From the NCBI GenBank assembly GCA_016177205.1, contig JACOVS010000023.1:1-34276 (forward strand): 34,276 nt of DNA. Reading direction: 5' to 3'. The position numbers and the translations under genes are program-made. This document shows, piece by piece, positions 27 through 31,502 of the stretch. This stretch comes from Candidatus Aenigmatarchaeota archaeon (GTDB lineage Archaea; Aenigmatarchaeota; Aenigmatarchaeia; JACPZZ01). The first letter of the stretch is position 1. Every line of letters starts with the position of its first letter. Under the pieces are notes generated by a model. It was not told the DNA's origin. It saw only the letters and a list, made by a program, of their open reading frames with translations, and searched no databases.

Positions 27-48
27 CAGTATACGGTATGTTTCTAGC
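27..48. repeat. Copy of the 22-nt repeat cagtatacgRtatgYttctagc, also present at 12655-12676
   Basis: cggtatgtttctag (34-47) is identical to 12681-12694. The longer 22-mer differs from 12655-12676 by two transitions. The pheT stop codon (cta at 48-50, TAG on the minus strand) overlaps the repeat's 3' end (cta vs ctt at 12676-12678). Confidence 0.6.
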
Positions 49-1670: not shown

Positions 1671-3145
1671 TACACCCTCACCTTCGTCGCTCTCAGCATG
1701 CCCAAATCGTTTTTGAAGTAGAAATTGCGTATGTCGTTCAATCCCGTTATCAGTGCGATCGGCCTTTCCAAGCTTAGGCCCCACGCCAGCACAGGAACGT
1801 CAACACCAAGAGGATTCGTAACCTCGGGCCTGAATATCCCGGCGCCGCCCAGCTCCACCCACTCCTGCTTGTCCTCAAAGTAAACCTCCGGCTCTACGCT
1901 CATTTCCGTGTACGGGAAATACGCCGGGCGGAATCTTATTTTTTCAAACCCCAGCCGCCAGTAAAATTCTTTCAGGTAGCCGAGCAGGTCGCGGAAAGTT
2001 ACGTTCTCGTCAGCGACAATTCCCTCGACCTGCGTGAATTCAGGGAGATGTTTGTAGTCGACAGTTTCGTTGCGAAACGCTCTTCCTATGCAGAAAATTT
2101 TTGCGGGCGGCTTCAGCCCGTACAAGCTTCTGGCAGAAACAGCGGTGGTATGCGTCCTCATCACAGGTTTTTTCGCAATATCCTCGGACCATTTGTACGC
2201 CCACCCAGTCGAACCGGCAGTGCCGGACTCGTGCGCCTTTTTTACCCCGGCCACGAGGGGTTTGTCCGGTAATTCGGATTTAAAGGGTTTTTCCATGTAA
2301 AACGTATCCGCTAACTCCCGTGACGGATGGTCTTGGGGCTGGTACAGCGCATCGAAACACCAGAAGCTTGATTCGACCAAGGGCCCGGACGCCTCCTTGA
2401 ATCCCATATCGAGAAATATGTTTCTTATTTTTTCAGCCCAGACAGTCGTTATGTGCTTCTTTCCGGTTATTAGCCTCCCGGAAGGTTGAGTCACGTCGTA
2501 AGGCCTCAAGCCCTGTTTCCATTGTCCCGATTTTATTATTTCCGGGGTAAGCTTTCCTATATCGGGTCCGAACCCAGTGCGCCGGAACAAACTTGATTCG
2601 GACAACCCCTTGCCAGTTAGCGATATGAATTCTTCCTTAACAATCTTTTCAGAAACCAGCCCCCTGGTTTTGAACTCTTCCATCCTGTCTTTAGGTATTT
2701 CATTACCAATGCGCAGGTCATTTAGAAAATGTTTGTCTTTGTCGACATCTTCCGGATCCGAAGACGTTTCGGCTACACCGTTTACAATTTGTATCCAGCC
2801 TTTTTTCTTGGCCCACATTATTGCTATATCAAGGCCTTTAAGATCCTTTATTTTGACAGGGCCTTTTATTTTGACCTGCCTGTATAGGCTGCTTTCCGGT
2901 AAGCCGCGGGCGGCGTATTTTTTACCTTCTTCTGTTAGGGCGTAAGAACTCTTTTCTTCGGTTGTTATTTTAACCAGTTCTTTGTTACTCAAACGGAGAG
3001 CAGCTTTCCTGACAGAATCTTCGTTTAACCCGGTTTCTCTGGAAATAGTTTCCACGTTGTAGGAGCCCGAGCCGGTTCCCCCGCCCAGCGTGCGAATACA
3101 TTCAAGCAACTTTGTTTCGTGTGGATGATAAATGCCGCCCATCAA
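1670..3145 (-). CDS. pheS: Phenylalanyl-tRNA synthetase alpha subunit
   Basis: 491 aa with N-terminal winged-helix repeats and a class II core (FRNETVDYKHLPEFTQVEG, GAGIFRPEV, LAWGLSLERP). Confidence 0.9.
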   Translation of the reverse strand: MMGGIYHPHETKLLECIRTLGGGTGSGSYNVETISRETGLNEDSVRKAALRLSNKELVKITTEEKSSYALTEEGKKYAARGLPESSLYRQVKIKGPVKIKDLKGLDIAIMWAKKKGWIQIVNGVAETSSDPEDVDKDKHFLNDLRIGNEIPKDRMEEFKTRGLVSEKIVKEEFISLTGKGLSESSLFRRTGFGPDIGKLTPEIIKSGQWKQGLRPYDVTQPSGRLITGKKHITTVWAEKIRNIFLDMGFKEASGPLVESSFWCFDALYQPQDHPSRELADTFYMEKPFKSELPDKPLVAGVKKAHESGTAGSTGWAYKWSEDIAKKPVMRTHTTAVSARSLYGLKPPAKIFCIGRAFRNETVDYKHLPEFTQVEGIVADENVTFRDLLGYLKEFYWRLGFEKIRFRPAYFPYTEMSVEPEVYFEDKQEWVELGGAGIFRPEVTNPLGVDVPVLAWGLSLERPIALITGLNDIRNFYFKNDLGMLRATKVRV

Positions 3146-8254: not shown

Positions 8255-8565
8255 CTGCCCAGCGGGTCTCTGATATCAACAAATCTGCTGATTCTGTTTT
8301 TGTAAAGCACGTTGCAATCTTCCGGGAAATGCGTAAGCAGGTGTCCGTCCGCAGCGTTGATATAACCGTATTTCCTGCGTACACATTCAGCCTGCGAAGG
8401 CCCCAGCCCGGAATATTCGATTCCAATAGCAGAGAAGTTTATATCATCCCTGTTCCGGCCCACCAGTTCTATGAAGCCTCTAACCTCGTCGTATGCGAGA
8501 AGTTTACCCATCAGCCTGAGTACATTCCCCTCCAAGGTGACAGCAGCGCGGCCGTTGCTATTCAT
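8251..8565 (-). CDS. Hypothetical 104-aa protein, translationally coupled upstream of trpB
   Basis: ORF 8251..8616. ATG at 8565 (MNSNGRAAV) is preferred because it overlaps the stop of the upstream wHTH-like reading frame. There is a 4-nt overlap with the trpB start. No family recognised. Confidence 0.45.
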
Positions 8566-8860
8566 CCTGGCCGCCCTCCAAAATCTTGCGAAAATACCTG
8601 CCGATCCCGGTGTCAACCAGGGGTTTGCCTCGTGTATCTGCGCACCCGAAATCCAAAAGCCCTAGCCCTTTCAACCTTCTTAGAACAACTTTGGCGGTGC
8701 TCTGGGGATAGCCAAGCGACCCTATACCTTTTACCGCGCCAGAAAACGTTCTTCCAAAAAATCTGAAAGATTCAAGGAAAATCTTGCGCTCGTTTTCGGT
8801 GAAAGACCTGTCTAAGAAAATCTTAAATTCTTTTTCCGGAAGTCCAAAGACACTCGCCTT
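8558..8860 (-). CDS. Winged-helix-like reading frame (about 100 codons) without a canonical start codon; possibly a frameshifted gene
   Basis: My translation of the minus strand: ...[95 protein letters not shown]. It is open from the TGA at 8861-8863 to the TAG at 8558-8560. The first in-frame ATG/GTG/TTG is about two thirds of the way in. An ATG at 8867 is in another frame and could join it through an A5 run. Confidence 0.3.
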   Translation of the reverse strand, partial: KASVFGLPEKEFKIFLDRSFTENERKIFLESFRFFGRTFSGAVKGIGSLGYPQSTAKVVLRRLKGLGLLDFGCADTRGKPLVDTGIGRYFRKILEGGQDE

Positions 8861-8946
8861 TCACCATCTTTATCAAACTTTAATTGCAGAGAAACCCTTA
8901 AATAAGCATCGGACAAGAATCTTGTCCAGAGGATATTTATTACCCG

Positions 8947-10428
8947 ATGAAAGAGTGGGCAACTATGAACTTCGAGACCATGATGAACCTGTTCTCACGG
9001 CGGGGAATTTTGTTCCCGTCATCGGAGATATACGACAACCACCCGTCCGGTTTCTGGGATTACGGCCCCTACGGCGCGGCTGTGAAAAGGAAGCTTTCCG
9101 AACTGTGGCGCCGTGAAGTAATAATCCGGGCCAACATGATCGAAATAGACGGCTCCATATGCATGGACGCCGACGTCTTTCGCGCATCGGGCCACCTGGA
9201 AGGCTTTGCGGACCCGCTGGTGGAATGTTCCAAATGCGGCGCGATATTCCGCGCTGACAAGCTGATTGAAGAGGTTACAAAAGAAAAAGCGCCGGAAGGG
9301 ATGTCCGCGGAAAAATTCGATTCGTTGATAACAAAGCATAAAATAAAATGCACAAGCTGCAAAAGCCAGCTGGGTGCAACGCGCAAGTTTAACATGATGT
9401 TTAAGGTGAGCATCGGCGCATCAAAGCCGCAGGACGCTTACCTGCGTCCGGAGACGTGCCAGTCCATATTCGCCGGCTTCCCGCGCCTGGTAAAGGTCAT
9501 GAAAAAACCGCTGCCGCTGGGAATAGCGCAGATAGGGCGTTCATTCAGGAACGAAATATCGCCCAGGAACGCGGTTATCAGGGCGCGCGAGTTTACGCAG
9601 GCCGAGGCTGAGATATTTTTCGACCCTGGCAAAACCGAAGTCGAAAATTTCGAAGAAATTGGAAATTACAAGCTTAACCTGAAATCGGAAGGGGACAGCA
9701 GGGATTATTCTCCGGTTTCGGCAAAGGACGCGGTCGGCAGGAAAATTATGTCTAAACTCGCGGCTTACTACCTTTCCATAATGCAGCAGTTTTTGGTAAA
9801 GTGCGGCATACCGCTCGAAAAAATAAGGAACCGCGAACTCGGTAACGAAGAGCGGGCTTTCTACGCAAAAGAATCCTGGGACACGGAGATAAAGACTTCC
9901 CTAGGCTGGGTAGAGGTTGTTGCGAACAACAATCGGACCGATTATGACATGGCGGCCCACGGAAAAATTTCCGGCAAGGACGTGACTGTTGTCAACCCGG
10001 AAACGAACGAAAAGTTCATTCCCCATATATGGGAAATATCGATGGGTTTGGACAGGCTGTTTTACTGCGTAATGGAGACATCCTATAAAAAAGACGGCGA
10101 ACGCGTCTACCTTTCGCTGCCTCCGTACCTGGCGCCGTACAGCGTTGCCGTATTCCCGTTGATCAACAAAGAGGGCATGCCTGCGAAGGCCGCCGGCATC
10201 GCGGCAAAGATACGAGAGGCAGGTATAGACGTAGACATTGAAACAAAGGACTCGATAGGAAAGCGTTACGCGCGCGCCGACGAGATCGGTATTCCTTTCT
10301 GTGTGACTATAGACAGCCAGACGCTTGAAGACGGCTCCGTAACAATACGCGAAAGGGACACAAAAGAACAGAAAAGGTACAAAATCGGCAGCATGGAAGA
10401 AAGCCTCAGGAAAATGGTGGGCAAGTGA
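8947..10428 (+). CDS. glyS: Glycyl-tRNA synthetase (alpha2 archaeal/eukaryotic type)
   Basis: RRGILFPSSEIYDN..GFWDYGPYG N-terminus, class II motifs (GRSFRNEISPR, REFTQAEAEIF), and a C-terminal anticodon-binding domain (VAVFPL...GKRYARADEIGIPFCVTID). The start could instead be the ATG at 8965. Confidence 0.88.
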   Translation: MKEWATMNFETMMNLFSRRGILFPSSEIYDNHPSGFWDYGPYGAAVKRKLSELWRREVIIRANMIEIDGSICMDADVFRASGHLEGFADPLVECSKCGAIFRADKLIEEVTKEKAPEGMSAEKFDSLITKHKIKCTSCKSQLGATRKFNMMFKVSIGASKPQDAYLRPETCQSIFAGFPRLVKVMKKPLPLGIAQIGRSFRNEISPRNAVIRAREFTQAEAEIFFDPGKTEVENFEEIGNYKLNLKSEGDSRDYSPVSAKDAVGRKIMSKLAAYYLSIMQQFLVKCGIPLEKIRNRELGNEERAFYAKESWDTEIKTSLGWVEVVANNNRTDYDMAAHGKISGKDVTVVNPETNEKFIPHIWEISMGLDRLFYCVMETSYKKDGERVYLSLPPYLAPYSVAVFPLINKEGMPAKAAGIAAKIREAGIDVDIETKDSIGKRYARADEIGIPFCVTIDSQTLEDGSVTIRERDTKEQKRYKIGSMEESLRKMVGK

Positions 10429-12754: not shown

Positions 12755-12761
12755 TCAACAG

Positions 12762-12835
12762 TGGGTTCGGAGGGATTTGAACCCCCAACAGCACGGGCTT
12801 CAGCCGTGTACTCTCCCGGATTGAGCTACGAACCC
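12762..12835 (-). tRNA. tRNA-Phe (GAA), no intron, CCA not encoded
   Basis: Minus-strand sequence GGGTTCG TA GCTC AATCCGGGA GAGT A CACGG CTGAAGC CCGTG CTGTT GGGGG TTCAAAT CCCTC CGAACCC A folds as a canonical 74-nt cloverleaf with anticodon GAA. Confidence 0.9.
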
Positions 12836-15553: not shown

Positions 15554-16057
15554 ATGAAGCGTACTGGAGCAGCGCTCGCTTTAGCACTTGTTTTCTTATA
15601 TTTAACTGTGCCCGCAGCCGCAGACACGCCGGCAAGGGCGGCAAAGGAATCTGGGGGCATTTTATTCGAGTTAGGTATGTCCTCGTCTATTCCCAGGTCT
15701 TTAGACGATGTTACCATGACATTATCCCTATATAACGCGACAACAGGCAGGCTGATAACACCGGACGAGCTGCTGGTAAAAATATCGAAAACTGACACGG
15801 CGCTCTTCCCGCCCACGTCATTCAAGGCGCAGAAAGACAGCGTCGCAATATTCAGGTATACATTCCCGGAAGGCGGGAATTATGCAATAGGCTTCTCGGC
15901 ATCAAAATCGGATACAAGGGCTAATGCGACATTCGAATTTTTTGTTCAAAGGAGCGAGAACGAAACCACATCAAACCCGATTATCATAATCGTGGGGATA
16001 GTTGCCGTTATTCTGGTTCTTACCCCGTTCTTCATAAGATTCGTGAGCGGCTTTTAA
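15554..16057 (+). CDS. Secreted, C-terminally membrane-anchored protein of unknown function
   Basis: N-terminal signal peptide (MKRTGAALALALVFLYLTVPAAA), a beta-rich middle region with N-x-T/S sites, and a C-terminal TM helix (IIIIVGIVAVILVLTPFFI). Confidence 0.55.
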   Translation: MKRTGAALALALVFLYLTVPAAADTPARAAKESGGILFELGMSSSIPRSLDDVTMTLSLYNATTGRLITPDELLVKISKTDTALFPPTSFKAQKDSVAIFRYTFPEGGNYAIGFSASKSDTRANATFEFFVQRSENETTSNPIIIIVGIVAVILVLTPFFIRFVSGF

Positions 16058-21051: not shown

Positions 21052-22872
21052 TCAATCAAACCTTCTCGAATACCACAGCGTAACAAAGATCTGGTAAGGG
21101 TTTGCCAGGTCGCCGCTTTCAAATACGGTGTACGCCCGTGTTGAACTGCCGCCTAAAGAAGGGTTTTTTACATTAATAAACTCCTTTGGAGCCGACCAAA
21201 TTACCGCCGCGCGGACAAGGTTTTTAAAATCCTCGCCCCCTTGGTTGGCCGACACCCACACAGCCCTGCCCGCTTCCCTTTCGGTGATGCCGTCTTTTAC
21301 TATGACCGAAGCGACCGGGCCGTTGAGGCCGGAGTATTTGTTTTCGCTGCCCACCGCTATCCGCTCAACCCTGTCGTTGTCCGGATACGGGCCGGTCTCG
21401 GAAAAATCAACGAACTTGTACGTTTTGTTAAAGGAAAAATCCATGTTATTTTTTACGTTGAACGTGGTGTTGCGCAAAAATATCCAGTCAACCGCTGAAC
21501 TTTTCCATTTGGGCTCTTCCGAGAATTCGGGCGTCCGCAGGTCTATCGTGTGCGTTCCGACATCAAGCAAAACCGTGAACCCTTCAGGGTTCTCAACCCT
21601 GTTCCACCCCCACAAGCCGGCGAACGAGGCGTCCCGTTGAACGAACGGATCCACCAAAACCTCGGCACCGTTGTCAACGGACACGGTATACACCCTTTCT
21701 TTCTCCTTCGGCGTCGTTCCGCGATACGATCGCAGCCAAACTTCATACCTGTCAGGCCTGTTTACATTTATTGTTATTGTCACTTCGCTGTCCCTGGTAT
21801 CAGTCCACACCGCCTCCCCGTCAGAGCACAGGTCATCGCCTTCGCCTGTGCACAAGCCGTTGGCCGAGGCAAGCGCCCAGCCAGCGCCCGTTTCAGCTTC
21901 GGCCTTTTCGTTATAAGTTTGCGCGTGCACGCCCTTCAGCACCATGGAAAATCCGTTCAGGATAAAATTATCTCCCGCTATAAGCGGCCCCTCGTCCGCG
22001 TCGGCTTCGTTATTGTTGTTCTCGTCCACATAAACCACATAATCGCAATACGCCCCGCCTTCCGGCTTTTCGGAACTGTCTATTATCCAGAATTTTTTCG
22101 CAATTCCCCGCGTTTTAACAAGGCCCTCGTGCGTGCTGTTTGTGCACGATATGGGGCCGTTCAGGGCCGAATCCGACAGCAACGCAGCCGTGTTGTTCGA
22201 CGACCTGAAACCGTAAAAATATTTTTTAATGTCATAGCTTGCGTTTTCCGGATGGTCCGGGACTAAAATGCCGTTTGTTGAGGAGCCTGTCACGGAATCC
22301 GTAACCCATTTTAACCCGAAAACGTCCCTTAACACAGAATCGGAGTTTATTTGCGCCTGAGTAACGCCGGACAGGAGAATTACGCCTTTGTAGTTCTTGA
22401 GGAAATCGAGGAGTTTTTGCTTGTCCGCTTCCATGTTCTGGTAGTGCCCGTAGACTATTACGTCCAGCGAATTCCAGTCCTGGACTGCCGCGATGTCCGA
22501 AACCGCGAAATCAATTTTCCTTTCGTTCAAGTCGAAGTCGGCCAGGTGCCGTGCAAGTTCAGCCAACTCCGCAGCAGAACAAAAACATCCCACGAACACG
22601 CTCCTTTTTATGGCGTTCCTCAGGCCGAACTCGTATTCTATGGCGTCGGAAAAGAGTATGTTTCCTATCGAGGATGAAACAAACGAAGAGTTTTGCCAGT
22701 CGTCGCCGAGGACGTTCGCCGTGTAGACAACGTCCCTAGACAACAGCGAGAGGTAATTTCTCGCCCACGGCGTGTCTCTTGTGTAAAGGGAAGAAAACTG
22801 TGACAGCGCGAACAGCACTATCAATACGGATAGTATCATTTCGATGGTGTGTATGTAGCCTTTCTTTACCAT
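21052..22872 (-). CDS. Large (606 aa) prepilin-like surface protein, candidate pilus-associated adhesin
   Basis: N-terminus MVKKG|YIHTIEMILSVLIVLFAL resembles a class III signal peptide. A large predicted extracellular part follows, with a beta-sandwich-like segment (VTITINVNRPDRYEVWLRSYRG...THTIDLRT). There is a 7-nt overlap with the upstream pilin-like gene. Confidence 0.6.
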   Translation of the reverse strand: MVKKGYIHTIEMILSVLIVLFALSQFSSLYTRDTPWARNYLSLLSRDVVYTANVLGDDWQNSSFVSSSIGNILFSDAIEYEFGLRNAIKRSVFVGCFCSAAELAELARHLADFDLNERKIDFAVSDIAAVQDWNSLDVIVYGHYQNMEADKQKLLDFLKNYKGVILLSGVTQAQINSDSVLRDVFGLKWVTDSVTGSSTNGILVPDHPENASYDIKKYFYGFRSSNNTAALLSDSALNGPISCTNSTHEGLVKTRGIAKKFWIIDSSEKPEGGAYCDYVVYVDENNNNEADADEGPLIAGDNFILNGFSMVLKGVHAQTYNEKAEAETGAGWALASANGLCTGEGDDLCSDGEAVWTDTRDSEVTITINVNRPDRYEVWLRSYRGTTPKEKERVYTVSVDNGAEVLVDPFVQRDASFAGLWGWNRVENPEGFTVLLDVGTHTIDLRTPEFSEEPKWKSSAVDWIFLRNTTFNVKNNMDFSFNKTYKFVDFSETGPYPDNDRVERIAVGSENKYSGLNGPVASVIVKDGITEREAGRAVWVSANQGGEDFKNLVRAAVIWSAPKEFINVKNPSLGGSSTRAYTVFESGDLANPYQIFVTLWYSRRFD

Positions 22873-23432
22873 ACGCCCACCGTGATGTTAATTACGCCGC
22901 CGTCTGTGTCCGGCGCGTAGCGGACTATCTGGTATCTCTGGGTGACTGAGGTTCTCGTGCTGACGCATTCCCAATTCTGCGACCCGGAAGGCGGGCACAA
23001 AAGCAGCCTTGAGGAGGTGTCGTAAATGGAAATGTCCAGGCACTTGTTTTCAGACAGCAAGTAACTTTTGAAGTCTGTGTAGCTGTCCGCGGGAAAATGC
23101 GTGTTTATGTTCAACCTTGATAAAATCCTGCCGTAACCCGCCTCTGTCGAGCATAACGTGTCCAGGTATTGCACCTTTGTCCTGTTTATCTTGTGATAAC
23201 CGCTTCCAAGGCCTATCCTCGGAGGGTCGTTGGGGTTCGCGTCCCAGACGCCGTCGTCAAATATCAGAAACTCGGATATCTGGAACGTCCTTGCCCGTAC
23301 AGCGTCGGAGTTGTGCTGCGACGTGAAAGGTGGTATTTCATTGTTTACAAAATTCATCACATACACAACAAGAAGTATGAAAGATACAACGGCTATTATG
23401 AATTCTACCGTGAACTGGCCTTTTCTTTTCAT
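22866..23432 (-). CDS. Prepilin-like protein (188 aa)
   Basis: MKRKG|QFTVEFIIAVVSFILLVVYV: a basic leader, Gly, and Glu at +5, which is a classic type IV prepilin N-terminus. Confidence 0.7.
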   Translation of the reverse strand: MKRKGQFTVEFIIAVVSFILLVVYVMNFVNNEIPPFTSQHNSDAVRARTFQISEFLIFDDGVWDANPNDPPRIGLGSGYHKINRTKVQYLDTLCSTEAGYGRILSRLNINTHFPADSYTDFKSYLLSENKCLDISIYDTSSRLLLCPPSGSQNWECVSTRTSVTQRYQIVRYAPDTDGGVINITVGVW

Positions 23433-23433
23433 A

Positions 23434-24420
23434 TTAAAACCCGAGGAAGCCTATCCTGATAAGTATGCTGAACACGGCAAAGCCCATCCCGGACATTATC
23501 ATTGAATGCTTTAACCCGCTGGTCACAGAGTTCTCGCTTATCTGTCCTGCCACAAGCCCGCCGAAAATGCCCTGCAGCATGAGCATGGAAAAAAACAGCG
23601 CCGTATAATAGCAGCCCACGCCGGCGCCGACGCCAAACATGCTGCAAACGACGCCATAAACAGAGCAGGGCGCGCAGTTAAGATCGCCCGAGCCCAGGCA
23701 AAGCCTGCAGGGGTCGCTGAACCCGAAAGAACCGGACCCGCTCAACGAAAACGACTGTTGCTTGAACATGGGTATGAGTATTTTCGTGAGCGCAAGCACG
23801 ATTATTAGGAACATGAAAAATATCGCGTACATTATCATTACGTGCTGGCCCAACGCGGCTTTCCGCTCCTTTTCCGCGTCCTTTATGACCGCAACGTCCC
23901 TGGACACGGACTCCAGCGTAGATGTTATGTTGCCCCCGGACGCGTAGGCCTCTTTGATAATTCTCATGGAACGCGTCATCAGTTCGGAATTTTTCGTCCT
24001 GCTTATGAAAATTTCAACTATCCGCTCAAACGGGACGCCCCACGTGTAATGGTTTACTATCCTCCTTATTTCCGGCGTTAGTTTGCCGTAATTGGATTCC
24101 GCGGCCGCGCTTAGCGCCTGTATAAGGTTCATCCCGGATCTTTGCGACTCCGACAAGTCTCTCAGGAAACTGGGAAACTGCTCCTCAAGGCTTTTTATCC
24201 AGGCGTGGTCCAGGTACTTCTTGATGAGATACGGGCCGATTATGACAAGGACCGACAGGAATACAAGGTTTCCTATCACCCCTATGTCGGGCGCGCCGGT
24301 TTCCGTTTTAATAAAGAATATCCCGGTCGCCAGGAGCAGCAGCGCGAGCATCATCGGATAAATCGCAATGGAGTTCTCGTCCGTCGCTTTTGGAAGGTAC
24401 TTTTTTAATTCGTTTATCAT
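23434..24420 (-). CDS. Type IV pilus platform protein, half-size TadC/FlaJ-like, with a tetracysteine loop
   Basis: 328 aa from MINELKKY (ATG at 24420, 2 nt after the upstream stop). It has N-terminal TM helices, a cytoplasmic T2SSF-like helical domain (FPSFLRDLSESQRSGMNLIQAL), C-terminal TM helices, and an inserted CRLC-x7-CAPC segment. Confidence 0.7.
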   Translation of the reverse strand: MINELKKYLPKATDENSIAIYPMMLALLLLATGIFFIKTETGAPDIGVIGNLVFLSVLVIIGPYLIKKYLDHAWIKSLEEQFPSFLRDLSESQRSGMNLIQALSAAAESNYGKLTPEIRRIVNHYTWGVPFERIVEIFISRTKNSELMTRSMRIIKEAYASGGNITSTLESVSRDVAVIKDAEKERKAALGQHVMIMYAIFFMFLIIVLALTKILIPMFKQQSFSLSGSGSFGFSDPCRLCLGSGDLNCAPCSVYGVVCSMFGVGAGVGCYYTALFFSMLMLQGIFGGLVAGQISENSVTSGLKHSMIMSGMGFAVFSILIRIGFLGF

Positions 24421-24422
24421 TT

Positions 24423-25298
24423 TTATTCCTCTGTGGGCGAAATGCCCTTTGACAGGAAGATGAACCCGACGGATATCATGGGCAGGAAAATGAATATCAC
24501 GAAAAACTGGATGGATATTACGGACGAGGTTGGCGAAATCGCAGTCATCACGGCGCTCAATATCAAAAAGAAAACCGACCCCACTATTATCAGGGTTATG
24601 TACATCTCTATGTACAGGGACATTTGTTCGGAGTAGTCCTTGATGCTGCGGCGGAAGTCGGCCATGTAGGATTTTGATTTTTCGTGGAGGTATTCGCTCA
24701 TGCTGCCGCCTGTCGTTATTATCGTGGACAGCCCCCACAGCAGATCCTTGAACTTTTCCGACGGCGTCCTCTCCGACGCTTTCTGAAGCGCTGTTTTGAC
24801 GTCCATGCCGAATATTTCCGTGTCCGTGTAAATTCTGGAAACTTCCCGCGACAGTTCTCCGAACTCGGAGAAGTCCGAGATTATCTTGAACATCTTCGTA
24901 GGCGGCGCGCCCGAACTGGCGATGGTCGCCATGTACATCGTTCCGAAAGGCAGCGAGTTTTCGATTTTTCTTTTCCTGCTGCTTGCAGATAGCGAGGGAT
25001 AGTAATACATAGCGGCGAAGGACATGGAACTCAGCACAAGGGATAAAGTGAACGACATGGTGACCGCCAGCGCAACCGAGCTTATCTGGGCGTACCCGAA
25101 CGCCAGCCCGAGAAGCAGGGAAACTGTCGGCCAGCCGACCAGCATTATCATAAACGAAACAAAGACCATGTTGGATACATATTCGTGGATGGAAACGCGC
25201 ATATCGGCCTTTACCAGCCCCTCCCTCAGCGGGTCAAAATGTTTCAGGTAGGGCTTTACAATGCCGCCGAAATACTTGAACGCGATTTTATTCAGCAT
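24423..25298 (-). CDS. Type IV pilus platform protein, half-size TadB/FlaJ-like
   Basis: 291 aa. TM helices flank a cytoplasmic helical domain (LPFGTMYMATIASSGAPPTKMFKIIS...), matching the T2SSF/FlaJ domain organisation. Confidence 0.65.
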   Translation of the reverse strand: MLNKIAFKYFGGIVKPYLKHFDPLREGLVKADMRVSIHEYVSNMVFVSFMIMLVGWPTVSLLLGLAFGYAQISSVALAVTMSFTLSLVLSSMSFAAMYYYPSLSASSRKRKIENSLPFGTMYMATIASSGAPPTKMFKIISDFSEFGELSREVSRIYTDTEIFGMDVKTALQKASERTPSEKFKDLLWGLSTIITTGGSMSEYLHEKSKSYMADFRRSIKDYSEQMSLYIEMYITLIIVGSVFFLILSAVMTAISPTSSVISIQFFVIFIFLPMISVGFIFLSKGISPTEE

Positions 25299-25319
25299 CT
25301 TATCTCCTTGTAAAACGAG

Positions 25320-25638
25320 TTGGTGTTGTTTAACTTTGCCGCCGGGAAGTCCCCTTTCGCAAGGTGGGGGACGAGAGGCGCGTTATATCGGAACGCCATA
25401 AACATAAGGATATTTATGCAACACCATCCCTTATTATCATTGCTAACACGCAGACATAAGGTCGCAATAACAAAACCTGTGCATATCCCTGTGTTGCGTA
25501 AAGTCAGACGGGCAAGTGCACAAGCGCATTACCTTCGGGACGAGGGGAATTAAAGCCTGTTGGAGATTCCGCGTGTAATCCGTGAATCAGGAAGCACTAT
25601 GCGAAAGCGTGGTGTAGTTCACTAATAAGCGTAATGCC
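25320..25638 (+). ncRNA. Candidate structured RNA of unknown class in the 340-nt gap inside the pilus gene block
   Basis: No credible ORF. Helices seen: 25349-25354/25367-25372; ataaggat/atcccttat around 25405-25434; attgc/gcaat around 25439-25468; ggaat/attcc (25546-25550/25566-25570); gtgaa/ttcac (25582-25586/25618-25622) enclosing the 8-bp stem CACUAUGC-GAAA-GCGUGGUG, which has two G-U pairs valid only on the plus strand; gcattac/gtaatgc (25526-25532/25631-25637). Confidence 0.4.
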
Positions 25639-25639
25639 G

Positions 25640-28090
25640 CTATTCCACCATGTTCAGGATTTTGTCCGGGTCTGAATTGTACATGCTGAATATTCTGGCA
25701 ACCGAGGAGAAGTCGTTGATCCCGCGCTCCTGCATCCATTCCAAAACCTTTACCCTGTTTGAAATCTCCTGCTGCACCGATTTTTCCGGCATGCTGCCGG
25801 AATAAGCGATTTTTTTTAGCACTGCGCTCCTTCCCACCGCGCGCAAATAACTTTTGGCAGGGTCCCATTTGAACACTGTGTTGCCGACCGGTGCGCCGTT
25901 CTCGTAGCCGGTTATCTCCATTATCGTATCAATCTTTCTTATGTTCTTGCTCTTGAAAGTTGTCGTGTCGCTGAATATCAGTATGTCAAGGTTTTGTATC
26001 AGGTTGCCGGGCAGGCTTATCGGAGGCGTTGTTAACCTGTCTACAAGTTTCGATATGCTGTCCGCGTGTATCGTAGACATGCCCGGATGGCCCGAAGCCA
26101 TCTGCTGGAACAGCACATAGGCCTCCTTGCCTCGCACTTCCCCGACAATGATGTAGTCCGGCCTCTGTCGCAAGCTTTCTTTCAGCAGGTCAAACATGTC
26201 AACCTCCCCGATTTTCCTGTTGCCAACATCTGATATGGCCGTCCGTGCGACCTCGGGCACCCAGTGTGGGTGCGGTAAGCGAAGCTCAGGCGTGTCCTCA
26301 ATGGAGACTATTTTTTTAGTGGGTTTTATGAAAAGCGAGAGCACGTTCAACAGCGTTGTTTTGCCGGAAGCGGTCGAGCCCCCGATAAGTACTGATTTGC
26401 CGTTTTCGACGGCCAGCCATAGGTAAGCAAGTGCGGTGGCGTTTATCGTTCCGTAGTTAAGCATGTCTATCGGCGTCAGCGGCACGTCGGTAAATTTCCT
26501 TATGGTGAAGTTCGAGCCCCGCCTCGCTATGTCTGTTCCGAGCGTTGCCTGTACCCGTGAACCGTCTGTCAGCGTCCCGTCCAAAAGCGGTTCTGCGACT
26601 GATATCGTCTTGCCCGCCCTCTGCGCGAGTTTGACCGCGAAAGTGTCCAAGGATTTCTGGTCCGGGAATTTTATATTCGTTCTGATTGACCCGATCAACG
26701 GGTTTCTATGGAACACGTAAATCGGTATGTTCGTCCCGTCGCAGCTTATGTCCTCTAAGTTGGGGTCGTTCATTAACGGCTCGATCCTCTCCAGCCCCGC
26801 AAAATCCCTCCTGATATAATATTTGAGGACATCAATTCTTTTTTGGCCCAGCTTTACGCCCATTAACGAGAAAACGTCGTCGGTTTGGCGCATCAGGTAG
26901 CTGACGGCCTCTGCCTTGCGGAGCTTTCTCAGATCCATGTTTAGCCGCTCTTCAAGCAGCTCCTTGCTTTTTGAAAGTATCCGCTTCTCCTCGGGCGTAA
27001 GCGCGGGTTCAAAAACATTGTAAAGCAGGCCGTTTTCCTGCTGATCCCACCTTATGTTTGTGTAAGAATAGACCATCTCGCCCTTTGCGGGAACGCGCGG
27101 TATAAGAGGGTAAACCACATTCACGTTCATTATGTTTTCCGCTTCTTCCGTGTCAATCGGTGGCGGTTTTGCCTTGTCCGGGATTTCTATTCCGTCGGCA
27201 GCGCTTTTCGGTATTATTATGGACCTGCTCTCAACGGCAAATATCGGCCTCAGCTGGTCCGTTGTTTGTTGCGGCTGTGGTTGCGGTTGTGTCATTTGCA
27301 TGACAGGGGCCTGCGGATAGACAGGAAAATAAACGGCCTTGAAACCCCTTGCGTACTTCTCGAAGACTTTGTTCATGTCCACTCTGGGCTGCGGCAACCC
27401 CACTTTAACGCCTTCGGCCCTGTAGCTTTTTATTTTTTCCTGTGTTTTTATCAGTTGTTGCTCGTAGTCCGACATCATTTTTTTAAAGGTCGGCTCATCG
27501 ACTTCTCTCTTGTAGTATTTTTTTTCGATCTCGTCCTTCGCTTTTACCAGGCTGTCCCTTTCAATCTCCGCCTCCCTTAACCTGTCTCCGGCGCCTACAG
27601 CGCCGCTCTCTATTCTGTTCTCGATGCTCGAAAGGCTTTGCCTTATTTCGTCTATGTCATTTAACCTTCCGAAATCCGGCATCGACCTTAACGAGGCCAT
27701 TTCATTGCGCAGCGAGAGGACATCTTCGGCCCCCAGCCTGGCCTGCGTGTTGTCCTCCAGCCTCATGATTCGCTTGTAAATATCCTCGATCGATGCCTCG
27801 GAAACCCCGTATTTCTCCGCAGTCTTTTTCAGGTTGTGCGGGCTTTTCACAAGGTCCTCGATAGGGTTTTTATTAACCTCTTCCCTGTAGGCCGATGCGC
27901 CCAAAAGTTTTCTTACAACAAGTCTTACCTTTGTTTTGGAAACAATCTGCGGCTTGTCATTATTTTCGGCAACGGCTTTCAACGCCACCGCGACAGCTTT
28001 CGATATGTCGGGTTTTTTTACCTCCGCGGCGTCCGAAACCAAGGGTTTTTTCAGGGCGGCTTTCCGCATCAAGGAGTTCAGCTTTATCAT
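25640..28090 (-). CDS. FlaI/TadA/VirB11-family secretion ATPase with a long N-terminal extension (816 aa)
   Basis: Walker A GGSTASGKTTLLN, Walker B/Asp box DYIIVGEVRGKEA, His box GHPGMSTIHA, and a FlaI-like N-domain (VVYPLIP...YNVFEP). These are preceded by roughly 280 aa of basic, coiled-coil and PQ-rich sequence. Confidence 0.85.
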   Translation of the reverse strand: MIKLNSLMRKAALKKPLVSDAAEVKKPDISKAVAVALKAVAENNDKPQIVSKTKVRLVVRKLLGASAYREEVNKNPIEDLVKSPHNLKKTAEKYGVSEASIEDIYKRIMRLEDNTQARLGAEDVLSLRNEMASLRSMPDFGRLNDIDEIRQSLSSIENRIESGAVGAGDRLREAEIERDSLVKAKDEIEKKYYKREVDEPTFKKMMSDYEQQLIKTQEKIKSYRAEGVKVGLPQPRVDMNKVFEKYARGFKAVYFPVYPQAPVMQMTQPQPQPQQTTDQLRPIFAVESRSIIIPKSAADGIEIPDKAKPPPIDTEEAENIMNVNVVYPLIPRVPAKGEMVYSYTNIRWDQQENGLLYNVFEPALTPEEKRILSKSKELLEERLNMDLRKLRKAEAVSYLMRQTDDVFSLMGVKLGQKRIDVLKYYIRRDFAGLERIEPLMNDPNLEDISCDGTNIPIYVFHRNPLIGSIRTNIKFPDQKSLDTFAVKLAQRAGKTISVAEPLLDGTLTDGSRVQATLGTDIARRGSNFTIRKFTDVPLTPIDMLNYGTINATALAYLWLAVENGKSVLIGGSTASGKTTLLNVLSLFIKPTKKIVSIEDTPELRLPHPHWVPEVARTAISDVGNRKIGEVDMFDLLKESLRQRPDYIIVGEVRGKEAYVLFQQMASGHPGMSTIHADSISKLVDRLTTPPISLPGNLIQNLDILIFSDTTTFKSKNIRKIDTIMEITGYENGAPVGNTVFKWDPAKSYLRAVGRSAVLKKIAYSGSMPEKSVQQEISNRVKVLEWMQERGINDFSSVARIFSMYNSDPDKILNMVE

Positions 28091-28140
28091 GTTCCCATAT
28101 TTTATTGGCTTTCAGGGCTTAATTGTTTTTGTTGAACAGC

Positions 28141-28587
28141 TCACCTCTGCAAAACGACCTGTTTTGTGGAGTTGTAAAAAGTTATTTTTAACGGGGACTG
28201 CGTGCTTAATTCCGAGCCGCCCAAAAAGACAGCGGTCCGGTTGATGTTATACACGCCTAGGGACGCCCGGTACGCATCCGTGTGGGTCGCGTTTACGTGG
28301 ACGCCGTTGTCGTTTAAACTCAACCGGTAGGCCTTATTCCCGACAACGCGCGGTACCGGAAGTTTCAGGGTCGCGTTATGGAAATATCTGCCTTGGCCGT
28401 ACACTTCGACCAGGTTTGCCGCGACAGCCAGGCCCACCTCCTGGAAGCTGTCGTGGGTCGAAACCAGATCCACCCTGTCCCCAAGAAGGCTGAAAATGGA
28501 AAATACGCTTGTAAGGATTATCAGGCCTACCCCGAACAGCACGACCTGCTCAATGATCTGGTATTGTCCGCGCAGGTTTTTGGTCAT
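28141..28587 (-). CDS. Prepilin-like protein (148 aa)
   Basis: MTKNLRG|QYQIIEQVVLFGVGLIILTSVF class III signal-like N-terminus followed by a beta-rich body. Confidence 0.6.
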   Translation of the reverse strand: MTKNLRGQYQIIEQVVLFGVGLIILTSVFSIFSLLGDRVDLVSTHDSFQEVGLAVAANLVEVYGQGRYFHNATLKLPVPRVVGNKAYRLSLNDNGVHVNATHTDAYRASLGVYNINRTAVFLGGSELSTQSPLKITFYNSTKQVVLQR

Positions 28588-28657
28588 GAATTATTTTACA
28601 ACGCCCAAAAAGATAAACGAAAACCCCTTTTGGTCAAACTTTGTCCAAAAGTTTGGG

Positions 28658-29302
28658 TCACGCGAAATTGACCTTTATCCTGCTTATCTCCAGGTCCTTG
28701 CCGTTCGCTGCACCGCCTGCAATGACAAACCTGCCGTCGTAACTTATCGAAACCCTGCCAGATGTCACGTTTTGCACCGGACCCGATTCAACGTCTATCC
28801 TGAAGCCTTTGTTCGGCGTATCGACTTCCCTGTACCAGAGCCTGTAAACGGCTGTGTAATCGCCGGCGGTATTTTTCGCCATGCGGACAAGCAAGACACC
28901 CTCCTGCTCCCCGAAACCGGCGTACCCGCCTATGTTGCCTGTGTTGATCCCGACCCACCTGTCAAGGGCGTAAACGTTTTTCGCGGCCGCAGCCGTAAGG
29001 ACAACGCTGTTGTTATACTCATTGGCTGCGGATTGGTCCAGGTAGTATTGCTCATAGTTGAAAACGCTGAAAAGGCCCTTCTGCGAAAGTTCCACGTTTT
29101 CCGTGCAGGATCCGGTGCACGTCTGGGCCATTTCCTTTATCTCGGCGTTTAGAACCTCGAAAAAAGCCCTGGTGCTTTCCGACTCTGCCAGCGAGCTGCG
29201 CTTTTCGGTTAGGGGCGCGCCCCACATGTACGCAGCGCCCACCAAGCTGACAACTACAGCGCCCAGCATGACAAACGTGACAACCTCAGCCTGTCCTTTC
29301 AA
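28658..29302 (-). CDS. Prepilin-like protein (214 aa)
   Basis: MKG|QAEVVTFVMLGAVVVSLVGAAYMW class III signal-like N-terminus followed by a beta-rich body. Confidence 0.6.
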   Translation of the reverse strand: MKGQAEVVTFVMLGAVVVSLVGAAYMWGAPLTEKRSSLAESESTRAFFEVLNAEIKEMAQTCTGSCTENVELSQKGLFSVFNYEQYYLDQSAANEYNNSVVLTAAAAKNVYALDRWVGINTGNIGGYAGFGEQEGVLLVRMAKNTAGDYTAVYRLWYREVDTPNKGFRIDVESGPVQNVTSGRVSISYDGRFVIAGGAANGKDLEISRIKVNFA

Positions 29303-29395
29303 AGAATCACTAAGATAGTATTAGTCTGCAGGTTAAATTAAATACTACCCGCCAAAAAGTTTCCTTTCCCTGAGTTTTCTCTTCCCTTAAGGATG

Positions 29396-29412
29396 CTCTT
29401 TTTCCAAAAGAG
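29396..29412 (-). terminator. 7-bp hairpin 6 nt after the pilin A stop
   Basis: ctctttt-tcc-aaaagag. It is followed, further downstream in the minus direction, by an AT-rich TATA-like tract (29325-29345) ahead of the next gene. This arrangement fits a partial terminator after an abundant major pilin transcript. Confidence 0.35.
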
Positions 29413-29417
29413 AAGGC

Positions 29418-29867
29418 TTATCTGCAAGTTACCTGCGTCTGCGCAATGTTAGTTCGTGTCCCGATTACGAGCGCGTACGTGCCTGCGGCGAACGCGGAGC
29501 CGTTGGCGCAATTGGCCGCGCTTCCTCTTCCGGCGAAGAGCGTGGCTCCGGCGCCCGGGGCTATCCCGGCAGACGGGAAATACTGGTTTATAAAGTTGGT
29601 CGGGGTTGTGCAGTCAAGGCTGTTCACTGTTGCCACGATAAAGTCGGACGGGAGCAAGTTGCTCGTCGCCCCGTTGTTCTGCACCACAACACTCACGTAA
29701 TTGTTGCCCCCGATCTTGTAACATATCGCGCCTCCGGGCGGTATGGAAACGCCTTTCTCGGTCTGCGTCGAAGCGAGGCCGGAAAACCAGGCGTAAGCGA
29801 GCCCTACGATGCCCACGGTTATCAACATCAACATTACCAGCGCTATTACAGGCGTTATCCCCTTCAT
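29418..29867 (-). CDS. Archaeal type IV pilin, paralog A (149 aa), candidate major pilin
   Basis: MKG|ITPVIALVMLMLITVGIVGLAYAWFSG N-terminus is typical of archaeal pilin/flagellin-N-terminal-like proteins. Four Cys, one at the C-terminus (VTCR). Confidence 0.8.
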   Translation of the reverse strand: MKGITPVIALVMLMLITVGIVGLAYAWFSGLASTQTEKGVSIPPGGAICYKIGGNNYVSVVVQNNGATSNLLPSDFIVATVNSLDCTTPTNFINQYFPSAGIAPGAGATLFAGRGSAANCANGSAFAAGTYALVIGTRTNIAQTQVTCR

Positions 29868-30097
29868 TTTCTGTCGCCCCTTTCCGAAGAAATGATCGAG
29901 AACGTTGCCAGTTGTGTTATGCTGGATATTATCACAAGCACTGCCAGCATGACAAGCGCCTTTGTGACATTGTCGCCCTGCGGAAGTATGCTCATTACCC
30001 CGATAAGCAGGTAGCCGCCCACAACAAGCAAAACGCCGATAACGGTTACAAAAACGTTTGTTAATGTCCGTCTCTCGTGCGGCTTTACCATTATCAC
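29864..30097 (-). CDS. Two-TM miniprotein (77 aa) coupled to pilin A
   Basis: Two hydrophobic helices separated by a loop with DNVTK. ATGA stop/start overlap with pilin A. A paralog lies at 30490-30729. Confidence 0.55.
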   Translation of the reverse strand: MIMVKPHERRTLTNVFVTVIGVLLVVGGYLLIGVMSILPQGDNVTKALVMLAVLVIISSITQLATFSIISSERGDRK

Positions 30098-30100
30098 ACC

Positions 30101-30493
30101 TTACTTGCAGAAAGCGGTTGATTCAACAACGCTGGTGCGCGTCCCAACCCGGACTGTGTGAGAACCGGAAGAGCATGTCCCGCCGCAAGTCCAGTCCTTG
30201 ACGATCAATCCGCCAGCGCCCGGGGCAAGGTTAATCGCCTGCTTCGTAGCTTCCGTCCCGTCAACGTGCGCTATGATAACATCCGAATCAAGCAAGTTGC
30301 TCGTCGCCCCGTTGTTTTGTATCAGAATACTGACTTTTCCACCCGCGCAGTACGCGCCTCCGGGCGGTACCGAAATGCCCTTCTCTGTTTGAGTTGTCAG
30401 TAAACCGGAAAACCACGCGTAGGCAATGCCGACCATGCCCACGGTTATCAACATCAACATTACCAGCGCTATTACAGGCGTTATCCCCTTCAT
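30101..30493 (-). CDS. Archaeal type IV pilin, paralog B (130 aa)
   Basis: The N-terminal 45 aa are nearly identical to pilin A, and 62 nt are identical (30435-30496 vs 29809-29870). The C-terminal domain has diverged and carries four Cys. Confidence 0.8.
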   Translation of the reverse strand: MKGITPVIALVMLMLITVGMVGIAYAWFSGLLTTQTEKGISVPPGGAYCAGGKVSILIQNNGATSNLLDSDVIIAHVDGTEATKQAINLAPGAGGLIVKDWTCGGTCSSGSHTVRVGTRTSVVESTAFCK

Positions 30494-30729
30494 TTTTTGT
30501 CACCCTTCAGGCTGTGCCTGATCTTTCCCAGCATCGCCAACGATGCCAGCTGTATCATGCTCGAAACTATGGCCAGCAGCGCAAGCAGCAGTATGCCTTT
30601 TGTCACATTGTCCTGCTGCATCGTGGTCATCAGGACCATCACGAGGTAGCTGGTGATTACCAGGATCGCGGCAATAACAACAACAAAAACGTCGACAAAA
30701 ACATTTTCTTTTAGCGCCGTTTTAGCCAT
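30490..30729 (-). CDS. Two-TM miniprotein (79 aa) coupled to pilin B
   Basis: Same architecture and DNVTK loop motif as 29864-30097, with the same ATGA overlap with its pilin. Confidence 0.55.
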   Translation of the reverse strand: MAKTALKENVFVDVFVVVIAAILVITSYLVMVLMTTMQQDNVTKGILLLALLAIVSSMIQLASLAMLGKIRHSLKGDKK

Positions 30730-30752
30730 AAAAACCCTTTTTAATAAATATT

Positions 30753-31247
30753 TTATCTTCTTATTAAAGGCGTGCTCGTTGTAGTACCGATCGTTGGCCT
30801 TGGAGGAACAACGTAGAGCCTTTTCAACCGCTTGTCGATCTCGTCCAGGGAGCCTATGATTGCCTGGTTCGACTCAACGGTTTTTTTGCCATATTCAACC
30901 AGTTGGCCGATCCCCTCGGCTATGGGCCTCATAGTTTCCGAGGAAGTTCCGGAAACCTCTTCCTGCGACGCGGCTTTGAGCAGCGAAACAAACTCGTTCA
31001 GCGTCCCGAGCAATTCGTCTATCTTTGAGGGTATTCTTGAAATTTCGTTCCGCAGGTCAAGGTTCGCCCTGACCAGGTCGTCAACTATTTGCTGGTTCGC
31101 CTTGATCAGTTCTATCATTTCGTCGACAAGCTTGTTTATTTCCTTCGCAGAAGTCCCGCCCTCAATCTGGTCCAGCCGCCTTTCCAATCGCCTGATCGGG
31201 GTCATGGCTATGATTTCATACTCTTCAGAATCGGATGTGCCGGCCAT
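30753..31247 (-). CDS. Soluble coiled-coil protein (164 aa), first gene of the pilus block
   Basis: Heptad-rich sequence (RRLERRLDQIE, LVDEMIELIKANQQIVDDLVRANLDLRNEISRIPSKIDELLGTLNEFVSLLK), no TM helix, and a Pro/Thr-rich C-terminal tail. Confidence 0.5.
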   Translation of the reverse strand: MAGTSDSEEYEIIAMTPIRRLERRLDQIEGGTSAKEINKLVDEMIELIKANQQIVDDLVRANLDLRNEISRIPSKIDELLGTLNEFVSLLKAASQEEVSGTSSETMRPIAEGIGQLVEYGKKTVESNQAIIGSLDEIDKRLKRLYVVPPRPTIGTTTSTPLIRR

Positions 31248-31280
31248 TAAAGTAGATTTTGATTTCTATCAATAAATACT

Positions 31281-31502
31281 TTAAAGGTGGCTAGAAAACC
31301 GTTGGAGACTCCCTCTGGAAGAGTTAAAAAAGAAAGACGCTACAGCTTCGCCGTCTTTATTTTCTATATCGATCAGGTAAACACCGGTAAGTTGCTTGTC
31401 CAATTTTGGAATTCCACACTCTGGGTCTATTCCGCCGTTTTGTGAACTGGTCAAAACCCCTTTCCCGGGAGGTCTAATTCGTATTGTGACTTGCTGTTGC
31501 AT
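31281..31502 (-). CDS. Hypothetical small protein (73 aa) with a TGATG overlap to the thermosome stop
   Basis: The ORF fills an otherwise 254-nt gap. ATG at 31502 shares one nucleotide with the thermosome TGA. No family recognised. Confidence 0.35.
   Translation of the reverse strand: MQQQVTIRIRPPGKGVLTSSQNGGIDPECGIPKLDKQLTGVYLIDIENKDGEAVASFFFNSSRGSLQRFSSHL

Follow-up and report, generated by a model that had tools for sequence, protein, structure and literature searches.

Makarova, Koonin and Albers (PMC4858521) trace the euryarchaeal type IV pilus (T4P) systems back to an ancestral set that comprised an ATPase, TadC, a major pilin of the PilA family and a large minor pilin. In their classification, clade 1 occurs only in Methanococci, Methanobacteria and Thermococci, and two tadC genes are present in this clade as well as in many loci of clade 2. 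A 2026 survey by Sivabalasarma and Albers defines its 'system 1' by two platform genes, counts DPANN archaea among the carriers, and also reports two platform genes in some DPANN 4A loci (bioRxiv 10.64898/2026.04.22.720090). In addition, DPANN genomes have been shown to contain islands of pilus 'dark matter', in which TadB/TadC occur together with pilins that cannot be recognised (Makarova et al. 2019, PMC6393860). We analysed a block of genes at positions 21052-31247 of a 34,276-nucleotide (nt) stretch of DNA from Candidatus Aenigmatarchaeota (DPANN), called the window here, and we hold with good confidence that these genes form a complete operon, inherited vertically, for an archaeal T4P (or type IV filament, TFF) that does not rotate. 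By sequence comparison, its provisional place is closest to the PilA-based pili of euryarchaeal clade 2; its split platform is like that of system 1. The split platform itself is not new, because two platform genes have already been described for archaeal loci, including those of DPANN. The locus is atypical only in its accessory genes, and the pilus itself is uncharacterised and unnamed.

The list of open reading frames (ORFs) shows 12 co-oriented, tightly packed genes in the block, all on the minus strand. A preliminary description of this DNA had counted 13, although its own list also sums to 12; the minus-strand ORFs it described are all present where it had placed them. The operon begins with a helical protein (cc164) and continues with two cassettes, each consisting of a miniprotein with two transmembrane segments (2-TM) and a pilin (tm79 with pil130, then tm77 with pil149). 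These are followed by two prepilin-like proteins (p214 and p148), the assembly ATPase, the N and C halves of a platform protein, and two more prepilin-like proteins (p188 and p606). With the exception of one 341-nt spacer, all gaps between these genes measure -7 to 115 nt: 23 nt from cc164 to tm79, -4 nt from each 2-TM gene to its pilin, 3-12 nt from pil130 to tm77, 115 nt from pil149 to p214, 70 nt from p214 to p148, 50 nt from p148 to the ATPase, 59 nt between the platform halves, 1 nt from the C half to p188, and -7 nt from p188 to p606. The unusually long spacer (25299-25639) separates the ATPase from the platform N half and is the only room for a thirteenth gene; we found neither a credible ORF nor an Rfam match in it, and its predicted fold is not unusual (z-score -0.9), so the count stays at 12. 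The same junction measures about 55 nt in two related loci (L004 and L007) and 177 nt in a third (L005).

The block keeps its organization in relatives, whose loci we fetched for comparison (L003-L029). ATPase relatives with 71-82% identity come from metagenome-assembled genomes (MAGs) of groundwater Candidatus Aenigmatarchaeota, and distant ones with 50-57% identity are annotated as Aenigmatarchaeota, Nanoarchaeota or uncultured archaeon. Five loci (L003-L007) have the same order as the window: thermosome, helical protein, two 2-TM/pilin cassettes, p214, p148, ATPase, platform halves, p188, p606, NMD3 and aIF1A. The more divergent L008-L016 encode the helical protein, one 2-TM/pilin cassette or none, p214, p148, the ATPase, both platform halves, p188 and a p606-like gene, and often share the same housekeeping flanks. 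Gene order and flanks are thus kept among Aenigmatarchaeota MAGs down to about 50% ATPase identity. In the window, too, the flanks are housekeeping genes (thermosome upstream, NMD3 and aIF1A downstream), and GC content is even over the whole length. Pairwise ratios of nonsynonymous to synonymous substitution (dN/dS) of 0.03-0.18 for the 2-TM proteins (tm79, 0.07-0.18; tm77, 0.03-0.11), the helical protein (about 0.03), one pilin and p148 indicate purifying selection, which shows that these small genes are real. Because order and flanks are kept and the small genes are under purifying selection, we conclude that the operon belongs to the core genome, where it has been inherited vertically for a long time, and that it is not a mobile island.

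Between the thermosome gene and cc164 lies an intergenic region (31248-31501) with an A/T-rich, TATA-like element, TTTAAAGTATTTATT, which we read from the sequence about 30 nt before the ATG and regard as the putative promoter of the operon. A scan of the window for sigma-70 promoters and terminators gave counts equal to those in shuffled sequences and is uninformative for an archaeon.

The core of the machine is readily recognised. The assembly ATPase (25640-28090; 816 amino acids, aa) has a FlaI/afGspE-type core at about residues 345-810; the N-terminal extension of about 340 aa that precedes it consists of a helical region and then a P/Q-rich linker and is confined to the close clade, the distant orthologues being 570-690 aa long. 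The protein matches Pfam T2SSE at 6e-30, and its Walker A, Asp box, Walker B and His box motifs are all intact. Against the PDB, the best match is afGspE of Archaeoglobus (2OAP, 4e-108), ahead of Sulfolobus FlaI (3e-77) and bacterial CpaF (5e-40). The best NCBIfam model is FlaI (5.5e-114), with 382 bits against a curated cutoff of 550; the NCBIfam model of the TadA-family conjugal transfer-associated ATPase matches at 2e-49, and neither Pfam PilB3_N nor PilB3_C was detected. This is the sole secretion-type ATPase in the window, where the only other P-loop proteins are EF-1alpha and one flavoprotein-like ORF, neither of them of the KaiC/MinD type. The exact ATPase was found on two short Logan contigs only.

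Two membrane proteins follow the ATPase gene. The first (24423-25298; 291 aa) contains a T2SSF domain (1.6e-17), equals the first half of FlaJ/TadC/PilC, and aligns to positions 25-249 of the 555 in an ArlJ/FlaJ model. The second (23434-24363; T2SSF, 1.4e-17) equals the second half of FlaJ and aligns to 196-393 of 465 and 306-476 of 555 in FlaJ models; the longest-ORF rule would make it 434 aa long and overlapping the upstream gene, and we adopted a length of about 309 aa. Since each protein matches one half of the FlaJ models, the two together constitute one split platform. The preliminary description had named both a FlaI-like ATPase and two half-size platform proteins, and these searches bear it out.

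In one Aenigmatarchaeota MAG (JACPZZ010000001.1; L007:10001-15562), the orthologous ATPase is one continuous ORF of 1853 aa with two inteins of about 500 aa each, both with LAGLIDADG homing-endonuclease motifs; the window gene has neither. Intein 1 follows ...RRGSNF, starts with CIKEGY and ends with ...FVHD before a T, and intein 2 follows ...SIED beside the Asp box, starts with SVTGDSE and ends with ...VVAHN, again before a T. The platform C half has a Cys-rich loop between transmembrane segments at about residues 205-250 (DPCxxC...CxxC...C...C), which is kept in most Aenigmatarchaeota orthologues and absent in L013. NCBIfam gives a weak match to the DnaJ zinc-finger region there, and the loop is probably a metal-binding or disulfide-bonded structure on the outer face.

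The filament candidates were identified by their N-termini. We scanned every window ORF of at least 60 aa for [KRDE][GA] followed by a hydrophobic helix, a rule of the FlaFind type and not the published predictor itself. The scan returned six proteins of the block and two shadow ORFs lying antisense inside real genes; among the real genes of the window, only these six carry class III N-termini. The N-termini quoted in the preliminary description are exact to the letter, all six fit the motif rule, and the motifs are kept in orthologues. Thus, orthologues of the two short pilins keep K/R-G-I-T/S-P/A-V/I-I, and the K-G/A/S-Q motif of p214 is kept in 11 orthologues. In an alignment of 11 p148 orthologues, the Gly at -1 is invariant and the Gln at +1 nearly so. 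The p188 orthologues show K/R-G/A/S-Q-x-x-x-E/D with an invariant Q at +1, and p606 and 148 relatives show [KR]-G-F/Q/Y-x-x-x-x-E. The Q-x-T/S-x-E motif of p188 belongs to the QXSXEXXXL/DUF361 type, a type that characterises the substrates of the Methanococcus peptidase EppA (PMC2910488).

The peptidase itself would have to be encoded elsewhere. Outside the block, the proteins of the window have at most two predicted hydrophobic segments each, and we therefore agree with the preliminary description that the window contains no prepilin peptidase. A related DPANN locus of another lineage (uncultured archaeon CBFDVL010000007.1, L027:2985-10486) has a different composition: six tandem PilA-like pilins without 2-TM partners, an 850-aa surface protein with a signal peptide, and homologues of p214 (3e-20) and p148 ahead of the ATPase. 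It also encodes a 226-aa prepilin-peptidase-like membrane protein beside the pilins, at 8275-8955. Since this gene lies among pilus genes, an in-locus peptidase is possible in relatives.

Two of the six proteins resemble filament subunits. The first, pil130 (30101-30493; 130 aa), is a PilA-like type IV pilin that starts MKG↓ITPVIALV..., where the arrow marks the predicted cleavage point, and is likely a major pilin. The second, pil149 (29418-29867; 149 aa), has the same signal and N-terminal helix, with a divergent globular domain. We take the G↓ITPVIALVMLMLITV pilin start to resemble the PilA family consensus. An AlphaFold2 model of pil130 built from 43 homologues (predicted local distance difference test score, pLDDT, 84.9) has an N-terminal helix of 32 residues (4-35) followed by a beta-sandwich. 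The profile of the pilin family matches the type IV pilin of Pyrobaculum calidifontis (PDB 8FK7) over its full length at E=7e-5, and for this family the sequence profile search told more than Foldseek. Cys49 and Cys129 are invariant in the family. Below cutoff, NCBIfam UpsA matches pil130 at 2e-6 and pil149 at 2e-7, and arch_flag_Nterm matches pil149 at 0.04; CARDB matches within the family are weak and sporadic.

Each pilin gene is preceded by a small partner. The 79-aa 2-TM hairpin miniprotein tm79 (30490-30729) has a stop codon that overlaps the start of pil130 by 4 nt, and its paralogue tm77 (29864-30097; 75-77 aa) overlaps the start of pil149 in the same way. Orthologues of tm79 occur in L003-L005 and L007, and positional analogues with two transmembrane segments precede the single pilin in L011 and L013. 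Proteins of the tm79 type and of the tm77 type are each 70-84% conserved across genomes, whereas identity between the types is about 37%; the cassette was therefore duplicated as a unit before these species diverged. The predicted external loop between the transmembrane segments of tm79 and tm77 contains an N-x-T sequon (DNVTK); the L011 analogue has it as NFT and L004 as NST, and some orthologues lack it. The sequon is a possible site of N-glycosylation.

The first gene of the operon, cc164 (30753-31247), encodes a cytoplasmic all-helical protein of 164 aa, either a coiled coil or a helical bundle, with no transmembrane segments and a conserved N-terminal motif, EYEIxPxxPxRRLExR. Its Pfam matches are weak and limited to coiled-coil families, and its profile finds just generic helical bundles and coiled coils in the PDB. 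The 32 homologues are confined to this group, and none is in a curated family. In L009 and L010, cc164 overlaps or abuts the next pilus gene. Comparison of cc164 with the N-terminal extension of the ATPase revealed no similarity.

The remaining four class III proteins are candidate minor pilins. Two of them lie before the ATPase: p214 (28658-29302; 214 aa, MKG↓QAEVV, with a TTG start) and p148 (28141-28587; 148 aa, LRG↓QYQIIE). The N-terminal region of p214, about 75 residues, is DUF7289-like, with matches to this Pfam family in five of 11 family members (best 2.9e-10). No Pfam or NCBIfam family matched p148, which has homologues in L012 and L027. The third, p188 (22866-23432; 188 aa, KRKG↓QFTVEF), is weakly DUF7287-like (three of 11 members, best 3.4e-4, below cutoff). 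When the p188 and p214 families were aligned by hhalign with single haloarchaeal DUF7287/DUF7289 proteins, only N-terminal, low-probability matches resulted, and a literature search on DUF7287-7289 found nothing. In one uncultured archaeon (L014:13811-14527), a minor pilin of the p188 type carries a C-terminal DUF2341 (9.4e-19), a PilY-type adhesin domain.

The fourth, p606 (21052-22872; 606 aa, KKG↓YIHTIEM), is a modular protein and putative adhesin. It consists of a conserved N module (about residues 1-220), a beta-rich region that varies between lineages (about 220-480), and a conserved C module (about 480-606). It has 12 close homologues, and all the named ones are hypothetical proteins of Aenigmatarchaeota. 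Its profile finds 377 representative clusters among 1.84 billion proteins; these have the N and C modules in common and the signature [KR]G↓F[IV]H[IV]VE, and all named members are again from Aenigmatarchaeota. Because the relatives share the N and C modules and mostly are about 350 aa long, residues 220-480 of p606 represent an insert. Four of ten sampled relatives have a Laminin_G_3 domain, a concanavalin-like lectin fold, in place of the p606 insert, and Foldseek with a poor model of p606 gave weak matches to jelly-rolls of the carbohydrate-binding module (CBM) type, which are a hint only. These models and relatives only suggest that the insert of p606 is lectin-like. The modular insert, the Laminin_G_3 relatives, the jelly-roll matches and the DUF2341 fusion in L014 support, and do not prove, the likely identification of this large minor pilin as an adhesin.

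From these components we infer filament formation, a division into major and minor pilins, and a function in attachment, and we propose the following working. The six class III proteins, whose motif is plain, would be inserted in the membrane and cleaved after the conserved Gly by a peptidase encoded elsewhere. A hexameric ATPase of the FlaI/afGspE type would then dock on the two-polypeptide platform of the FlaJ/TadC type and drive the extraction of pilins into the filament; the family membership and the intact motifs are observed, and the mechanism is proposed because of known TFF machines. The two PilA-like pilins would form the shaft, a role to which their size points, as do the facts that they are duplicated, that they come first among the structural genes and that they match the subunit of a solved filament. 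The four proteins that have a Glu close to a Q, F or Y at +1 would be the minor pilins, priming the filament or sitting at its tip, and p606, with its swappable beta-sandwich or lectin-like insert, would be the likely adhesin that touches a host cell, another cell or a surface. More speculatively, each 2-TM miniprotein would handle its own pilin in the membrane, as its translational coupling to that pilin may indicate, and cc164 and the N-terminal extension of the ATPase would form a cytoplasmic scaffold or regulator.

Several observations weigh against reading the block as a complete pilus operon. A prepilin peptidase is absent both from the window and from the 10-kb flanks in the fetched Aenigmatarchaeota loci, so class III processing is a prediction. 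Pilin_N of Pfam matches weakly in three of 14 pilin homologues (best E=0.0026) and in none of the window proteins, and Arch_flagellin is likewise weak (0.0037, in two of the 14); a bona fide haloarchaeal pilin, by comparison, scores 9e-23 for Pilin_N. Foldseek with the pil130 model returned no significant PDB match, the subunit of the Natrinema PilA1 pilus ranking third at E=0.06. The DUF7287 and DUF7289 matches are chiefly N-terminal and mostly below the Pfam cutoffs, the AlphaFold2 model of p606 is unreliable (pLDDT 44.5, from an alignment of 11 sequences), and the roles proposed for the 2-TM proteins and cc164 come from gene position only.

A bolder version of the pilus proposal would make the structure a dedicated organelle for host recognition, in which the 2-TM proteins serve as pilin-specific membrane chaperones or gatekeepers and tip minor pilins, from a family of at least 377 clusters, set host or surface specificity in this uncultivated phylum through interchangeable lectin-type inserts. 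We offer this tentatively and think it rather unlikely. We are equally reserved about its corollary, that a 2-TM partner for each shaft pilin and a tip pilin with a split scaffold would be features so far undescribed for archaeal T4P.

Returning to the pilus operon as such, its affinities are, provisionally, closest with clade 2/system 2, which is represented by PilA1-6 and PilB3/PilC3 of Haloferax volcanii and by PilB4-type loci. As in those systems, a FlaI-family ATPase has a long N-terminal extension, PilA-like pilins start G↓(I/V)(T/S)PVI..., several minor pilins flank the ATPase and platform genes, and adhesin-like large proteins are encoded in the locus. The nearest non-DPANN ATPases that we found are from Methanoregula, Methanomicrobiaceae and Archaeoglobaceae (39-45% identity), where the ATPase gene adjoins a single platform gene of 640 aa, and PilB-type ATPases of haloarchaeal megaplasmids are 41-43% identical to that of the window. 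A Halobaculum locus encodes, in order, a Pilin_N pilin, a hypothetical protein, a PilB3-like ATPase, a single T2SSF gene, DUF7287, DUF7288, a weak DUF7261 match, DUF7266 and DUF7289; the families that p214 and p188 weakly match thus occupy minor-pilin positions in this PilB/PilC locus. The differences are equally specific. Here the platform is made by two genes, whereas the 2026 definition gives system 2 a single gene (two were allowed by Makarova 2016), and the nearest euryarchaeal relatives (L017-L020 and L028-L029) have one platform gene encoding 640-700 aa. The window ATPase lacks detectable PilB3 domains, the Pilin_N match is marginal, and the minor pilins lie on both sides of the ATPase. 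The 2-TM/pilin cassettes, cc164 and the p606 family have no family match in the searched libraries, and the p606 profile found no match in two haloarchaeal loci that we examined. These three components, the last of them a family of large minor pilins in which a lectin-like insert can be swapped, are what is specific to the lineage. The claim of the preliminary description that the parts match no described archaeal pilus operon was accordingly overstated, as the platform, the ATPase, the pilins and two minor pilins have known relatives.

Two further comparisons place the components. The pilin of P. calidifontis is the closest solved relative; like the pilins here it is about 130-145 aa long, and its intramolecular disulfide recalls their two invariant Cys. 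However, the P. calidifontis pilus locus includes a KaiC/FlaH-like ATPase, which this locus lacks, and the organisms are unrelated. Bacterial Tad/Flp systems (TadA/CpaF, TadB and TadC) also have two platform genes and an ATPase homologous to that of the window through CpaF, but the window ATPase is much closer to archaeal afGspE/FlaI, the pilins are not of the Flp type, and there is no secretin, Rcp or TadZ in this locus.

The split platform had suggested to the preliminary description a pilus of the Epd type (system 1, clade 1), known from Methanococcus maripaludis, Methanobacteriales, Thermococcales and some DPANN. The two platform genes by which system 1 is defined, and its report from DPANN, speak for such an assignment, as do the large adhesin-type class III protein in the locus, the many minor pilins with Q at +1 and the QxTxE of p188, which is like the DUF361 substrates of EppA. 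Yet many clade 2 loci likewise have two tadC genes (PMC4858521), and the locus encodes no EppA-type peptidase, the platform halves being the only multi-TM proteins in or near it. The candidate major pilins, which are the smallest class III proteins here, are 130 and 149 aa long with a globular Ig-like domain, about twice the length of the domain-less, arCOG06620-type Epd pilin of about 70 aa. In addition, the taxa with the nearest non-DPANN ATPases that we found (Methanomicrobia, Archaeoglobi and Halobacteria) carry clade 2 systems, which points to clade 2 for this ATPase. An Epd-type pilus is therefore improbable in our judgement.

We also considered that the genes might build a pseudopilus or 'functionalised' filament that captures substrates or takes up macromolecules, like a bindosome or a competence system, and does not attach the cell to a host. 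DPANN cells depend on imported metabolites, and a large minor pilin whose relatives have lectin-type or carbohydrate-binding-type domains would suit such a use. NCBIfam gives the bindosome models BasE (2.5e-59) and BasF (1.4e-11) as secondary matches, and the 2026 survey puts forward scavenging as a use of binding proteins that TFF machines display (bioRxiv 10.64898/2026.04.22.720090). Nevertheless, the BasE and BasF scores are far below those for FlaI and FlaJ, neither a solute-binding protein with a class III signal nor an ABC transporter is linked to the locus, the window contains no ComEC- or Ced-like channel, and two duplicated shaft-type pilins suggest a real filament. We regard an uptake function as quite unlikely.

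A reduced archaellum, a filament for motility, shares with this locus a homologous ATPase, a homologous platform and class III filament subunits, finds FlaI and ArlJ/FlaJ as the best NCBIfam models, a 'flagellar-like' T4P subunit as the closest solved pilin relative and the weak Arch_flagellin matches in its favour, and has a precedent in the report of 'FlaG, FlaI, FlaJ and adjacent archaellum homologs' as a subset in most Aenigmarchaeota MAGs (Li et al. 2021, PMC8407114), but it is very improbable given that the FlaI and FlaJ scores (the latter 97 bits against 550) fall under the curated cutoffs, that afGspE, which is not archaellar, is a closer match to the ATPase than FlaI is, that the platform is split, that the window has no FlaH/KaiC-type P-loop protein, that the block proteins have no FlaF, FlaG or FlaC/D/E/X match in Pfam or NCBIfam and no above-threshold archaellin match, and that seven components are obligatory even in the smallest genomes (PMC4858521). 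The preliminary description had favoured a pilus over an archaellum for lack of FlaH, FlaF/G and FlaC/D/E, and we concur. Li et al. appear to have annotated these pilus genes as a partial archaellum.

The locus is thus a real, well-conserved, uncharacterised and lineage-specific version of a known machine. Our results correct earlier 'partial archaellum' annotations, and in each genome about ten 'hypothetical' proteins can now be attributed to a pilus. Because the machine itself is of a known type, the gain lies in annotation and testable hypotheses and not in a new principle. The operon is probably important for the lifestyle of Aenigmatarchaeota, since these very small genomes hold it within their conserved housekeeping core and it is retained throughout the phylum. 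The small-genome origin had been foreseen in the preliminary description, and attachment is a natural guess for such an archaeon. To our knowledge, all DPANN archaea cultivated so far live attached to a host cell, and we know of no host for Aenigmatarchaeota. The p606 family, with its swappable lectin-like insert, provides a concrete candidate determinant of host or surface specificity, and the insert could be used as bait for finding hosts.

Outside the block, a few features of the window and of the fetched loci deserve mention. In two loci of the Archaeoglobaceae type (L019:4975-8063 and L020:5357-8469), two genes come after the ATPase/platform pair and look, in their N-termini, like the two ORFs at 48-3145 of the window. 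From their sequence, these ORFs may encode the alpha and beta subunits of PheRS, and the resemblance is probably coincidental. A tRNA-Phe (GAA) at 12761-12835 on the minus strand is the sole Rfam/ARAGORN match in the window. Finally, a 167-aa ORF on the plus strand (15554-16057) has an N-terminal hydrophobic segment like a signal peptide and a C-terminal transmembrane anchor, and may be a small protein anchored at the cell surface, with no relation to the pilus block.

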